From: Eledone cirrhosa
Taxonomy: Eukaryota
NCBI GenBank assembly: GCA_964016885.1
Contig: OZ024743.1
Location: 70,742,001-70,806,000, forward strand
Direction: 5' to 3'
Length of the DNA stretch: 64,000 nucleotides
Both the position numbers and the translations under genes were made by a program. Every line of letters starts with the position of its first letter. The first letter of the stretch is position 1. The notes under the pieces were generated by a model. It was not told where the DNA came from. It did not search any database and saw only the letters and a program-made list of their open reading frames with translations. Below, piece by piece: positions 1,153 through 53,374 of this stretch.

Positions 1153-1300
1153 ATAACAAAGGAATTGTGGTAAGGAACCAGATGGACCATAACGCACCAG
1201 AGTTCTCAATACTTAGTAGAGTGGGAAATAGGAAAAAGTATGAGTCCAGAAATAGCCGTCGAAACGGCTTGAGCTCTGCTGTCGGGGTCATACTTTTTCC
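1153..1300 (-). mobile_element. Short TA-embedded element, putative Penelope-like 3' tail (copy 1 of this family)
   Basis: Reverse complement matches 2670-2785 and 14641-14720 (ACTCTGGTGCGTTATGGTCC...GGTTCCTTACCACA); contains hairpin AGCCGT-TTCG-ACGGCT; flanked by (TA)n. Confidence 0.5.
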
Positions 1301-2167
1301 TATATACATATATATGGATGTGTGTGTGTGTAAGTGTGAGTGTGTGTAAATATATATAACTATATATATGCATATGTATATATATATATATATATATAAT
1401 ATATATATCGAGCCGTCTTTGGATTTTAGTCTTCAAATTTATTATTATTACTATATATATATATATATATATATATATATATATATTATGAATACACAAC
1501 ACATACACATATACTTTCAGAATTCTCCCCCCCCCCCTCTCTCTCTCTTTCTCTCTTCTCCCTCTTCTAGTCCCTCATTCTCTTTTCTCTTTCATTTCTC
1601 CCTATATTTTTCCTTGTTTATCTCCCTATCTGACCCCCCCCCCCATCGTCCCTCTCTCTACCCCCCGGCCTCTTCTCTCTACCCCCCCCCCCTTCCGCCT
1701 ATGCTCAATACCCCTCCCCCCGCCTCTTCTCTCTACACCCCCTGTCTCACTCTCTCCCTCACCACCTCTCTCTCCTAATCCCATGGCTTAGTGTTCGTCC
1801 TACCAGCAAGAGATAAGCAGCTAAGACCCTGTGCCCTCAATTGGCGACCCAGTTTCGTTTCCCCGCTCATCCGTATCACTTCACATCTGTTCGCTGCTAT
1901 TCTCCATGATAAATGCATGAATGCCACACAATCTCTCCCAAACCTAAACCTTGATACTGTACTATTTCCTTTCCTTTCTTTTCTAACATTTCTTCTTCAT
2001 TCTCTCATTCCTTCTTTCTCTTCGCCCCTTTTCATTCACTCCTAGTCTTTATCTCCCCCTTCTCTAGATGCATATGTGTGTGAGCGTGTGTGTTTATATA
2101 TATATATATATATATATATATATATATATATATATATATATATATATAATGGTTTCTCTATATATAT

Positions 2168-2352
2168 AATTGTTTCTACGTTTGGTACAAGGCCAGCAAT
2201 TATCCAGTGCATCACTGGTACTTTATTTTATCGACCCCGTAAGGATGAAAGGCAAAGTTAACCTCGGCGGGATTTGAACTCAGAATGGCAAGGGCCGTAA
2301 CTCTATACGTCAAAGCATGGCGTCCGACCCTCTACCGATACTGCCAATCCAC
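2168..2352 (-). mobile_element. tRNA-derived SINE family A
   Basis: On minus strand: A box TGGCAGTATCGG, B box GAGTTCAAATCC, core GCCTTTCATCCTTACGGGGTCGATAAAATAAAGTACCAG; more than 15 copies in window. Confidence 0.9.
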
Positions 2353-2669
2353 AAGGAGTTGACGGACCCAGCATATTTAACAATGCCAGGACCGGCTGTA
2401 TTTCAGCGTACTCAATAGGTAATGTAGAATAATCAAGATTGAACCAGTTTTAAACTAGTTAGACCATTATTCAACGGTGTATTCGATACTTGCGTTAGAA
2501 GAGCGTAACTATATTAGAAAGAATTGGGGCTCGACGGCTGAGCTCTTACTGTTTAAATAGCTAGTTCCAGACCTGGAACTGTATACACACACACACACAC
2601 AAATATATCTATATATGCATGTGTGAGTGTGTGCCTGTGTGTGTGTCTGTGTATATATATATATAGGAA

Positions 2670-2785
2670 AAGATTCTAGATTCCGCTTCGACGGCTATTT
2701 CCTAATACCCATTCTACTACTCTCAGCATTGAGTACTCTGGTGCGTTATGGTCCACCTGGTTCCTTACCACACTGCCTTCGTTAT
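2670..2785 (+). mobile_element. Short TA-embedded element, putative Penelope-like 3' tail (copy 2)
   Basis: Homologous to reverse complement of 1153-1270; has ACTC..GAGTAC motif; ends in (TA)n. Confidence 0.5.
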
Positions 2786-2794
2786 ATATATATA

Positions 2795-2872
2795 GAGCAT
2801 ACTCTGCTCTGTAAGACCATAGAGTGCTCAACCGGCATACAGCCTATTGAAGCATCTTAGCTACCATAAGAC
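2795..2872 (+). mobile_element. Short TA-embedded tail element
   Basis: ATACTCTGCTC...ATAGAGTGCTCAACCGGCATAC matches reverse complement of 41005-41052. Confidence 0.5.
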
Positions 2873-3029
2873 ATATATATATATGTTAGATTATCGTAGA
2901 ATGAAACATGGAAATCAATTATTTAATGTATTAATGTACTAAACCTTGGTGATCTTATCATTACATCATTATATATATATATGTGTGTGTGTGTGTGTGT
3001 GTATATATATATATATATATATATATATC

Positions 3030-3370
3030 ACCTTGACCTTGACCGACCAGTCTGTCGCCATTCGGCGCCGTTCGTCACAGCACGTAAGTCTAAAGTCTGT
3101 CTTAAGCCAGAAGGCTCATTTGGCCGGTGCTTATCTCGGTTTCATGACTTGAAGCGACTGAGAGTACAAGACTCCCCCCTGGACAGGACGCCAGTCCATC
3201 GCAGGGTTAAACCTCCAGCTATTGCTGGTACTTATTTTCAGCTGAGTAAACTGGAGTAACGTGAAATAAAGTGTCTTGCTCAAGGAAAACAACACATCAC
3301 CCGGTCCGAGAATTGAACTCACAACCTTTCGATTGCAAGCCTACTGCTCTAACCAATAAGCCATGCACCT
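3030..3370 (-). mobile_element. tRNA-derived SINE family B (V-SINE-like central domain)
   Basis: Minus strand: TGGCTTATTGG A box, GAGTTCAATTCT B box, TCCTTGAGCAAGACACTT and GCGATGGACTGGCGTCCTGTCCAGGGG blocks; homolog at 61315-61600. Confidence 0.8.
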
Positions 3371-3432
3371 TCACATGTATATGTATATATATATATGTGT
3401 GTGTGTGTGTGTGTGTGTGTGTATACATACAT

Positions 3433-3750
3433 GGTGGCTGCCAACTCGTTTTCGAGTACGGCCACTACTTTATATACATGTAGGAGAACCCCTACCGATG
3501 CGCTGAACGAGTGTGACTTTTTAGTCCAGCCAGCGACTTGAAAACTCTGGTACAAACACTACACTTGTGACAATTATTGACACATAGTGCTGGGCCCATG
3601 GTACCATGTGATGACAAGTGCAGAGAGATCTCCAGATATAAAGCAATGCCTGTGCCGTGAAGCTTTTATAGTGAGCAAAGGCACTGCACAAAGTCAGTCC
3701 CACTCTCTTAACCAAGATGATATTTACCAAAAAGAAGAACAAGTCAACAT
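3433..3750 (-). mobile_element. Bipartite non-autonomous RTE derivative, 5'-truncated
   Basis: Near-identical to the 3' part of 13287-13894; microsatellite on both sides. Confidence 0.9.
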
Positions 3751-50880: not shown

Positions 50881-51598
50881 ATTATTTAAATTATACAAAT
50901 GTGTATAAAACTGATTCTTTAAAGTTCAGTAATGCACCTAAACTGATGTTTGCGTCCAAGGAAGCTGCCCATTTGGCTTCAATTAGATGATAGCGCCGAG
51001 CCTGGATATTAGTAAGAAAGAGAATCAATACCCAATAATATAACGTTTATAATAGATTTGAAAAACCCTTGATAGCTCTAAACTTAGTAGTAACTGTTTA
51101 TGATACATATTTTAAAATATTTCAAAGACATTGTAGATAAATTTCTTATAAAAGAGACATTTCAGAAAACTACGGGTAGATAGTCAATAGTTTGTCTCGT
51201 TAAATAACAGTGAAAATAAATATTTAAATAGACAAGCAATCTCCATTTTAAATATTCATAGTATTGCTTCAGAGTATGGAAACCAGTACTATGAATATTT
51301 AGATTAAATTGAGGTCATAAATATATATAAACCAACACACACGCACTCGCGCACGCACGCACACATACACACACACACACACATATACAGGCATATATAA
51401 ATTCATAAATGCTTAATACACTCGTGCATACTCATACATACATACACACTTACATATATAAATTCGTACATACGTAATATATACCCATACGAACATACAT
51501 AATGGGATCTTAGACTCTAGTCCAAGTAAAACCACTTTCTCATCGCAGATATCAGCCTGAATCTGACGTTAGACATTTCTGCCATTATAACCTATAGT

Positions 51599-51777
51599 TG
51601 GCAGTATCGGTAGAGGGTCGGACGCCATGCTTTGAAGCATAGAGTTGCGTCCCTTTATTATCTGAGTTCAAATCTCGCCGAGGTTAACTTTGCCTTTCAT
51701 CCTTACGGGGTCGATAAAATAAAGTACCAGTAATGTACTGGGTAATTGCTGGCCTTGTGCCGGATGTAGAAACAATT
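51599..51777 (+). mobile_element. SINE family A with 15-bp TSD
   Basis: ATTATAACCTATAGT at 51584-51598 and 51775-51789. Confidence 0.93.
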
Positions 51778-51904
51778 ATAACCTATAGTCATAACTACTG
51801 AGCTCCGATTTTGATTTTAATTTTTCTATAGCAAATGTAGCCTGGACTTTGAACAGTCACACTGCCAACAGGGGCTGCATCCCTGTGCATTCGAAGCCCA
51901 GTTG

Positions 51905-52327
51905 TACACGACCGAGAGTACACGTCTTCCCCTGGATAGGATGCCTGTCTTTCGCAGGTTAACTCCAGTTGTTACTGATAAAATTACAAGTCAGTCAATC
52001 ATATTGGTGGCCTCCCCACAGCCCCGGCGGACAGAATAGAGAAAGCGTTTCCCCGGAGGACGGCAAGGAAGACGTGCTGAAAAAGCCACTCCAACTGGCG
52101 GGGCTCACACCTGCCGCTGGCATACGTACCATACATTAGAAGAATAGAGACTTGTTTAAAATCAGAAGAGTTGACTAGAGTTGTTACCTGTACACATGTT
52201 AAACTGAATTGACTGGTGTAACGGAAATTAAATGTTTCGCACAGAAACACAACGTACTATCGTATCAAGGAATCGAACCTATGATATTATGAACACAAGA
52301 TCAACACCCTAACCACTAAGCCACGCC
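51905..52327 (-). mobile_element. Decayed SINE family B interrupted by a CRE fragment
   Basis: SINE B blocks at 51905-51980 and 52187-52327. Confidence 0.6.
51999..52120 (-). mobile_element. CRE-clade 3' fragment
   Basis: EPRQLEWLFQHVFLAVLRGNAFSILSAG; homologous to 23690-23790. Confidence 0.75.
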
Positions 52328-52463
52328 AGGAATGCAGCAACCAAGAATGCAATACACACACACACACACACACACACACACACACACATATACATACATA
52401 TATATATATATATATATATATATAGAGAGAGAGAGAGAGAGAGAGAGAGAGAGAGAGAGAGAG

Positions 52464-52645
52464 AGATGAGATTCTACAGGACTAGAACTGTTTCATTCTT
52501 GAGAAATCATCCTGATGATTTCTAAAGAATGAAACAGTTCTAGTCCTGTAGAATCTCATCTATATTAAAACTTTTATACTCTGCTATGTATTGAGTACCT
52601 TAGTTACTGTGGTTACCTCCGATTCAACCCGGAATAACTTACAAT
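52464..52645 (+). mobile_element. Short fold-back element family P
   Basis: Palindrome 52464-52561 centred on the CT of CTGATGA, plus tail. Confidence 0.7.
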
Positions 52646-52786
52646 ATATATATATGATTAAAGGTTAAACAAGGTTCAATGAATAAAGTTTCACAATGGA
52701 TTAGAAGCACTCCACAGTGAGGGTTTCTGGAGTTATTAATATTACTTCAAAATATTAATAAATATAGACATTCATGTGATCAAATA

Positions 52787-52852
52787 TATTTTATTATACA
52801 TATTTCAGAGGTACTGAGCTATTTAAACAGTACGTCCTCATCAGATAAAATA
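52787..52852 (-). ncRNA. Type-I hammerhead ribozyme (left arm)
   Basis: Reverse complement of 52990-53055. Confidence 0.82.
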
Positions 52853-52989
52853 AGTTGATGCTTGACATACCTTGACTATGTTGATGGTTATAATTCAGTC
52901 ATGGCAGTGAATTAGTTTTGTCATAACTAATTCACTGCCATGACTGAATTATAACCATCAACATAGTCAAGGTATGTCAAGCATCAACT

Positions 52990-53055
52990 TATTTTATCTG
53001 ATGAGGACGTACTGTTTAAATAGCTCAGTACCTCTGAAATATGTATAATAAAATA
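52990..53055 (+). ncRNA. Type-I hammerhead ribozyme (right arm)
   Basis: Stem [24 protein letters not shown]; stem II GGA.GTACTG/CAGTAC.TCT; GAAA-TATGTA-TA. Confidence 0.82.
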
Positions 53056-53374
53056 TATTTGATCACATGAATGTCTATATTTATTAATATTTTGAAGTAA
53101 TATCATATATATATATATATATATATATATATATATATATATATATATATATATAAAGTGGTTTACTGTTGTGTAACCACTTCTACCTAACTCGTCCCAT
53201 GGACTGAGTGCTCTACCATTACGGATATTACCTTCCAGTGTTCTACCACTATATATATATATATATATATATATATATATATATATATATATATATATTC
53301 ACATAGAATGCAATTGTGTCTAAAGACCCAGTCTTCGGTTGACATATTTATTTAATGCAACATGGCTTAACTAT

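Follow-up and report, generated by a model that had tools for sequence, protein, structure and literature searches.

A 64,000-nt stretch of the Eledone cirrhosa genome (assembly GCA_964016885.1, contig OZ024743.1, positions 70,742,001 to 70,806,000, forward strand; here called the window) contains many short repeats that share a bulged hairpin and abut (TA)n tracts. These repeats derive from Hydra-clade Penelope-like elements (PLEs), denoted here as lettered families, in which the hairpin occurs twice, once beyond each of two alternative insertion ends. On sequence evidence, we consider it likely, with moderate confidence, that the two hairpins are RNA sites for the element's reverse transcriptase (RT)-endonuclease and position two internal priming events, one per target strand. 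Behind this reading stand the following observations: the motif is paired and covaries, it keeps its offset from both ends, short ends are joined to long ones in head-to-head insertions, and ~99% of long-ended family A copies lack hairpin 2.

The hairpin motif and the ends of insertions

The motif reads RCTC-(inner stem)-loop-(stem')-T(T/C/A)-GAGY-RC, with covarying inner pairs and a fixed 2-nt bulge on the 3' side that begins with T. Its strict form, ACTC-N8-24-GAGT-RC, gave 11 matches in the window (10 distinct sites plus a reverse read of the site at 20003), well above the mean of 1.5 (maximum 6) over 200 block shuffles. When an inner stem of at least 3 bp was required, 7 matches remained, compared to 0.15 (maximum 2) in the block shuffles. 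Across the 3.0-Gb genome, a tightened pattern produced 157,379 matches and its reversed control 1,748. We also sampled 600 kb of evenly spaced genome pieces and a further 390 kb. The 600-kb sample held 53 strict matches, 37 of them with (TA)4 20-90 nt downstream, while seven control patterns had 11-37 matches each, just 0-2 of which were near TA; the 390-kb sample held 24, of which 17 were near (TA)n. An inner stem of at least 3 bp formed with the 2-nt bulge in 34/53 matches of the first sample and in none with a bulge of 0, 1 or 3. The corresponding figures for the second sample were 13/24 compared to 0, 1 and 1. Among the 10 strict window sites, the 2-nt-bulge fold is present in 6; the bulge is 1 nt at 53190, the inner stem is 2 bp at 2801, and damage is seen at 2719 and 14644.

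The original prediction, made from the window alone, had described a stem-loop with an ACTC/GAGT closing helix at 13 coordinates. Each of these holds the motif or part of it, and 10 match the strict pattern; the exceptions are 1202-1222(-), with one mismatch, 41295-41320(-), which has no intact inner stem and reads GAGT-TG, and 35655-35668(-), which is a 3' half. The proposed pairings ACTCT..AGAGT and ACTCCA..TGGAGT were out of register, as the true fold has the 2-nt 3' bulge, and the closing helix is not invariant, being GCTC/GAGC in hairpin 2 and in other hosts. A further Eledone family (loci L191, L204 and L063) likewise has a G-C-closed hairpin 1 (GCTC/GAGC), with a short end just upstream. 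Rfam returned no match at gathering score in the window for either the hairpin or a hammerhead; another Rfam scan was swamped by microsatellite microRNA look-alikes, and 12 loci yielded nothing but such look-alikes. By eye, against consensus features, we rejected twister, hepatitis delta virus-like and selenocysteine insertion sequence readings.

Each family has two ends. In family C, (TA)n is met at the 3' side either at a short end or, ~85 nt farther, at a long end, the difference being the known optional tail. Ends, taken as a proxy for where reverse transcription starts, were mapped by aligning seven natural read-through copies to the 990 kb of random sequence plus the window. This gave 165 alignments, 82 of which end at (TA)n. 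All but one of these 82 fall within -12 to +2 of a hairpin start, the remaining one lying at -75. Of the 81 fitting ends, nine reach +1 or +2 by TA microhomology. At a short end the copy meets (TA)n 2-12 nt before hairpin 1, and at a long end 2-12 nt before hairpin 2; at targeted loci 111/114 ends fit these hairpin windows. Reference TA sites within the hairpin windows amount to 47/255 TA dinucleotides and 29/96 TATA/ATAT words. The fixed distance of 45-70 nt from motif to (TA)n proposed earlier gave way on measurement: the distance is family-specific, at 28-57 nt when counted from the end of the motif and 50-84 nt when counted from its start. What is constant is the 2-12 nt between the 5' side of a hairpin and the insertion end, and the 3'-side distance merely reflects the spacing between hairpins.

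A second hairpin, which the original prediction had missed, was found at family C tandem junctions, where it is G-C-closed and begins 8 nt past the long end. The same position past the long end was then predicted to hold a hairpin in other families, and matches were found for family A (424), D (20), F (192), E (7) and K (99). Reversed-pattern controls in these five families all gave 0, and the matched rows include a few chance neighbours. Family B has a reduced hairpin, GCAC..GTGC, at the same offset in read-through copies. The hairpins are spaced 71-99 nt apart, and both lie in the pseudo-long terminal repeat (pLTR) or 5' leader of the open reading frame (ORF). In family A, 206 forward matches with hairpin 2 compare to 23,215 forward-strand long ends into TA; about 1% therefore keep hairpin 2.

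Head-to-head insertions joined a short to a long end in 27/27 cases from the random set and window (p 7e-9 vs 0.5) and in 55/55 overall, with a few targeted loci overlapping. Terminal ends without a partner numbered 106, and the random set included 13 unpaired short ends. Among family A arms, 37/52 begin between -70 and -50 and just 2 beyond -70, with a mode at -66, the location of an initiator-like word that a TATA-like word precedes by 29 nt. Family B arms are similar (18/23 between -80 and -50), and C-F show no clear pattern. Because A and B arms start at a promoter-like position, the small ~200-bp palindromes were probably copied from the 5' leader of the mRNA, and the copying would have run off the RNA where transcription had started, ~66-80 nt upstream of hairpin 1. 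Arms stopping at the hammerhead cleavage site were rejected, as the arms extend 30-45 nt past it. Locus L093 was considered as a unit-length copy from a circle, an idea dropped because it carries an inverted tail.

Carrier families and features of the window

The short elements sort into about 15 sequence groups. They are not separate elements: because read-through copies of groups A, B, D, E and F run on into their own Hydra-type ORFs, with between-family identity of 39-59%, these repeats represent the truncated termini of autonomous families, at least six in number, of a described clade. The marks of this clade are DKT in place of DKG, RW[KR], a CxC-X5-C linker, CxxC, CxH, no CCHH, a type I hammerhead and a (TA)n target (PMC8557442). 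Full-length family C has a single 799-aa ORF with RT and C-terminal GIY-YIG domains, DKT, CxC-X5-C, CxxC and CxH, and RWI rather than RWK; family A has a 717-aa ORF with RT and, at its C terminus, the GIY-YIG endonuclease. Over 62 ORF rows, DK[TS] occurs in 59, RW[KR] in 59 and CxC-X5-C in 53. CxxC and CxH are present near the C end in families A and C, and CCHH is absent from their endonucleases (the latter judged by eye). Hammerhead cores and stems are predicted in families B, C, D and F, with no clear one in E; the predicted family A hammerhead is a U3-A8 core variant, as reported in PMC4209133. Insertion into (TA)n was confirmed in the families examined. Judged by these motif marks, the carriers belong to the Hydra clade, and the original view of them as TA-targeting PLEs with a conserved cis-acting structure holds. 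Their length departs from the clade's, since the tandem period in A and C is ~3.5 kb, including a long 3' untranslated region (UTR), rather than <3 kb; Hydra-clade elements are described as "generally" short (PMC8557442). A Pfam scan of a PLE ORF named no domain, and the viral contigs searched contained no relative. The elements are not non-LTR retrozymes (short non-coding hammerhead tandems), as read-through copies of A-F enter their own ORFs.

Family A also occurs as intact tandem arrays (L113, L123 and L124; period ~3.54 kb, 717-aa ORFs, U3-A8 hammerhead). Its predicted transcription start lies inside the hammerhead stem II loop, so that only read-through RNA would hold the whole ribozyme. 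In L105, L106, L108, L110, L177 and L184, partial tandems have a next unit that begins at the same presumed RNA 5' end, which suggests template jumps onto a new RNA. Separately, L049 (G000:C2:383000001-383010000) is a retrozyme-like tandem array of a ~442-bp hammerhead unit with no hairpin, and related dispersed copies are present in L093, L097 and L101. Further PLE families with long 3' UTRs are at L095:8178-9998(-), L089, L037, L038 and L042, covered here up to but not including their ends.

In the coding PLE and the 52.7-kb palindrome, the hairpin had been placed just downstream of a hammerhead, in the tail. Its position inside the optional tail and downstream of the ribozyme stands, with a CTGANGA..GAAA core 66-111 nt upstream at 4/12 sites checked (19045, 20003, 52578 and 52733). 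The window features are as follows.

1202..1222 (-): hairpin 1, family A, one mismatch; in a ~155-bp head-to-head insertion at ~1150-1305 whose inverted arm stops 5 nt before the hairpin
2719..2736 (+): hairpin 1, family A-like, damaged inner stem; strict pattern
2801..2827 (+): hairpin 1, family E, 2-bp inner stem in this copy; strict pattern
14644..14674 (+): hairpin 1, family A-like tail-only copy with internal duplication; strict pattern
14725..16430 (-): inverted 5'-truncated family C copy, short end, no tail; inner boundary approximate
14789..14835 (-): hammerhead core of the inverted family C copy; core pattern
16471..18008 (+): Hydra-clade ORF, 5'-truncated and frameshifted, with RT (YRDDG) and GIY-YIG endonuclease, CxC-X5-C linker
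18938..18984 (+): hammerhead core, family C pLTR; core pattern
19040..19128 (+): family C optional tail, short end to long end; then (TA)n at 19129-19168
19045..19071 (+): hairpin 1, family C, 4-bp inner stem, TA bulge; short end 4 nt upstream
19314..19334 (-): hairpin 1, family B, long arm of an insertion at ~19260-19600 split by an expanded microsatellite
19932..19954 (+): hammerhead core, family B; inverted partner at 19902-19924
20003..20024 (+): hairpin 1, family B; strict pattern
35655..35668 (-): 3' half of hairpin 1, family B, tail fragment in a TA tract
41024..41050 (-): hairpin 1, family E, 5-bp inner stem; the other arm stops ~29 nt upstream, an exception
41295..41320 (-): degenerate hairpin 1, family G-like copy; fails the strict pattern
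52512..52534 (+): hammerhead core, family B
52578..52598 (+): hairpin 1, family B; strict pattern
52707..52733 (-): hairpin 1, family D, long arm of a palindrome at ~52655-53104; the other arm stops 5 nt before the hairpin
52803..52844 (-): hammerhead core, family D; inverted partner at 52998-53039
53190..53211 (+): hairpin 1, family G, 4-bp inner stem, 1-nt bulge in this copy

Other hammerhead-like cores in the window, at 4143-4166(+), 45343-45366(-), 6208-6231(+), 28000-28023(-) and 14422-14446(+), lack a strict hairpin, and several have a TA end after them; other PLE or long interspersed element (LINE) families are their probable source. LINE-type ORF fragments (RT tail, zinc fingers) lie between microsatellites at 4437-5324, 9603-10199, 11063-12091 and 28338-28853. 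A recurring repeat resembling a short interspersed element (SINE) and unrelated to the hairpin adjoins TA tracts at 2150-2360, 41720-41800 and 53380-53500.

Covariation of the hairpin in other hosts

We collected 89 Hydra-type loci from metagenome and genome-bin contigs. Among these, L307-L316 lie within bacterial genome bins and are most likely animal host DNA contamination. The leaders at these loci gave 46 hairpin matches in sense and 1 in antisense. Taking 78 distinct instances selected by their flanking words alone, inner pair 1 pairs in 75/78 (C-G 50, T-A 24) with a 2-nt bulge, compared to 2, 4, 8 and 21 for bulges of 0, 1, 3 and 4. Position 2 is paired in 58/78 and position 3 in 47/68, and positions 1-3 each exceed all 5,000 permutations. 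Spacer length in the hairpin ranges from 8 to 19 nt and above. A tree of 62 ORFs (median identity 0.47, no outgroup) assigns 7 shared double changes to inner pair 1 of hairpin 1, compared to 0 and 2 when slid. The A-T closing pair of Eledone hairpin 1 is confined to one clade and so represents one event. A MAFFT alignment of all 64 hairpins mis-registered the 5' side, and 12 equal-length hairpins were used instead; these are 94.8% paired, with covariation as high in 0/500 shuffles. Pair counts, permutations and the ORF tree together bear out the earlier impression that the inner stems covary. A model built from these 12 hairpins, all of them from other hosts, made 8 matches in the window, with six of the originally listed sites on top (five at E<0.1); it missed the other seven.

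At 57 loci with at least 150 nt upstream, 24 had two hairpins, 13 had one and 20 had none. Of the 20 hairpin-free loci, the majority resemble flanking host DNA or an ORF in inverted orientation; two look like genuine leaders that lack the strict motif. Downstream of 52 hammerhead-like cores, a hairpin came next in 37, a TA-type repeat came first in 10 and neither followed in 5; 14 further cores, too near a contig end, were excluded. Self-alignments placed 11/19 informative other-host ends within -12..+1 of a hairpin. By eye, the motif is present in the published consensi Hydra-2_Amil, Hydra-2_Ajap and Hydra-1_Ajap (twice), and with a mismatch in Hydra-1_Crog (PMC8557442); those bearing it include coral, sea-cucumber and copepod elements. 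A nonamer search of the available PMC8557442 supplement gave 8 matches: 4 Hydra consensi in motif context, 2 Naiad ORFs and 2 Chlamys. Line breaks hide some matches. The search gave no sign of the motif beyond the Hydra clade, but it is a weak test.

Priming models and their relation to known systems

Since loops vary, inner pairs covary and the bulge is one-sided, the motif appears to act as a single-stranded fold. An inserted copy ends without hairpin 2, so the long-end signal must sit on a molecule that retains it, for which the RNA template would be the simplest candidate. We propose that the RT-endonuclease, perhaps as a dimer, would bind both hairpins and nick both strands of (TA)n. One nick would prime just 5' of hairpin 2 and give the long end, with a complementary DNA (cDNA) carrying hairpin 1 as a passenger; the other would prime just 5' of hairpin 1 and give the short end. 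The two cDNAs would then join head to head, and the tail would accordingly be the inter-hairpin stretch, present on one side only.

Several observations weigh against this proposal. The strict hairpin-2 pattern failed in the genome search for family B, and for family G the search found no hairpin 2, just neighbours or chance matches. The hairpin 2 inner stem is often weak, pair 2 being paired in 29/51 and T-T in 20, and sequence may therefore matter as much as fold. In six leaders without protein, pairing of the outer helix was predicted to be marginal (0.09-0.99). Inner pairs 2-4 include 11 G-U pairs and 9 A-C mismatches, and RNA is not separated from DNA by these counts. The end mapping left unscored the 83/165 alignments with a non-TA end. 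In other hosts, 8/19 informative ends lie elsewhere than at a hairpin and 12 more are cut by contig ends. Among the published consensi, Hydra-1_Obim has no clear motif and that of Hydra-1_Amil is weak (PMC8557442, available text). Finally, the pairing of short with long ends is equally expected under a fold-back model.

That model, which we regard as unlikely but the best of the alternatives, has a single priming event: hairpin 2 sets the RT start, the cDNA folds back, and the short end arises where plus-strand synthesis stalls or the endonuclease cuts before hairpin 1 as DNA. Besides the pairing it predicts, self-priming and endonuclease resolution are the published readings of inverted PLE structures and tails (PMC3846280, PMC8557442), and a Drosophila endonuclease needed the tail for recognition (as noted in PMC11167929). 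It requires, however, a single motif at a single offset to work in RNA form at one end and in DNA form at the other. The 13 unpaired short ends in the random set also speak against it, as does the anole enzyme, which starts at two RNA sites in vitro (PMC11167929).

Alternatively, the hairpins could do other work in the leader, such as translation control 30-90 nt before the ATG, packaging or hammerhead folding, with ends set by AU-rich annealing to a nicked (TA)n primer. Both hairpins do lie in the ORF's 5' leader, and both ends show TA microhomology. Yet ~70-80% of the reference microhomology sites are outside the hairpin windows and only 1/82 ends falls there, and the offset is constant across families despite a hairpin spacing of 71-99 nt, which makes this explanation improbable.

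It is very improbable that the motif is a DNA site at which the GIY-YIG domain cuts the element's own DNA or a DNA intermediate a few bases upstream, making both ends cut sites rather than RT starts: the ability of GIY-YIG homing nucleases to cleave away from the site they bind, a GCTC..GAGC inverted repeat that would suit a dimer, and the nicking by the anole enzyme of its own pLTR junction (PMC11167929) favour it, but the spacer varies from 8 to 19 nt and more, a duplex needs neither covarying inner pairs nor a fixed one-sided bulge, and family A and B arms stop at a promoter-like position, as an RNA 5' end would give.

Recognition of both hairpins in RNA has its closest biochemical parallel in the anole Poseidon RT, which has two internal starts bounding the tail, extends both target strands, requires RNA 3' of the starts and is a predicted dimer (PMC11167929). 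By analogy, the Eledone families would share the two tail-bounding starts and the need for 3' RNA. Poseidon belongs to another clade, its starts are located within the ORF, in an AC-rich stem-loop, and the available text defines no conserved binding motif (PMC11167929); its supplement text contains neither 'stem' nor 'hairpin', figures being outside the scope of that search. The Eledone signal is instead a duplicated, covarying hairpin in a non-coding leader. The described Hydra clade shares with our families a C-terminal GIY-YIG, DKT, RW[KR], CxC-X5-C, the hammerhead, (TA)n, partial tandems, inverted truncated copies and a one-sided tail (PMC8557442). There the tail is 30-40 nt and attributed to endonuclease resolution, whereas here it is ~65-95 nt in units of ~3.5 kb; 'stem-loop' does not occur in the available main text of PMC8557442. 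Full-text literature searches found no description of the hairpin motif (figures, one GenBank file, Repbase and subscription journals were outside their scope), and the available texts of bioRxiv 10.64898/2026.07.22.740005 and PMC13282606 do not mention it. The Hydra clade itself and RT-binding hairpins as a kind are already known; what appears new is a signal that is present in duplicate and lies downstream of two programmed starts.

Hairpins near the start of target-primed reverse transcription are familiar from the 3'-terminal stem-loops of stringent LINEs and SINEs and from the R2 3' UTR, where the cis RNA hairpin lies upstream of the start and is copied. In Hydra-clade elements there are two, each downstream of its start, and the long-end one is left out of the copy. 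Hepatitis B epsilon is a bulged stem-loop that binds RT and fixes the start, with protein priming inside the bulge. L1 twin priming uses two primers from one target break to produce inversions; it is occasional and has no second signal, whereas in Hydra-clade elements the second site is encoded and fixed.

PLEs are the closest relatives of telomerase RT, and the motif may bear on how they choose start sites, carry a one-sided tail and form inverted copies. About 25 nt long and kept across elements ~47% identical in protein, it makes a precise, testable prediction for each end, and it provides a short signal by which cDNA insertion could be steered into TA microsatellites. It also reassigns the very abundant small palindromic repeats of the Eledone genome, as counted above by hairpin matches, to truncated PLE copies. 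More tentatively, we raise the possibility of programmed double priming, in which a pair of encoded hairpins would load two RT molecules, these would begin within the RNA on the two opposite strands of a single (TA)n break, and every ordinary insertion would lose hairpin 2 at its 3' end. With the signal downstream of the start, only tandem read-through or hammerhead-circularised RNAs could then template full-length offspring. If true, programmed double priming would give a joint account of tail, head-to-head structure and tandem arrays, and of why the ribozyme is retained, and it may hold for PLEs generally.

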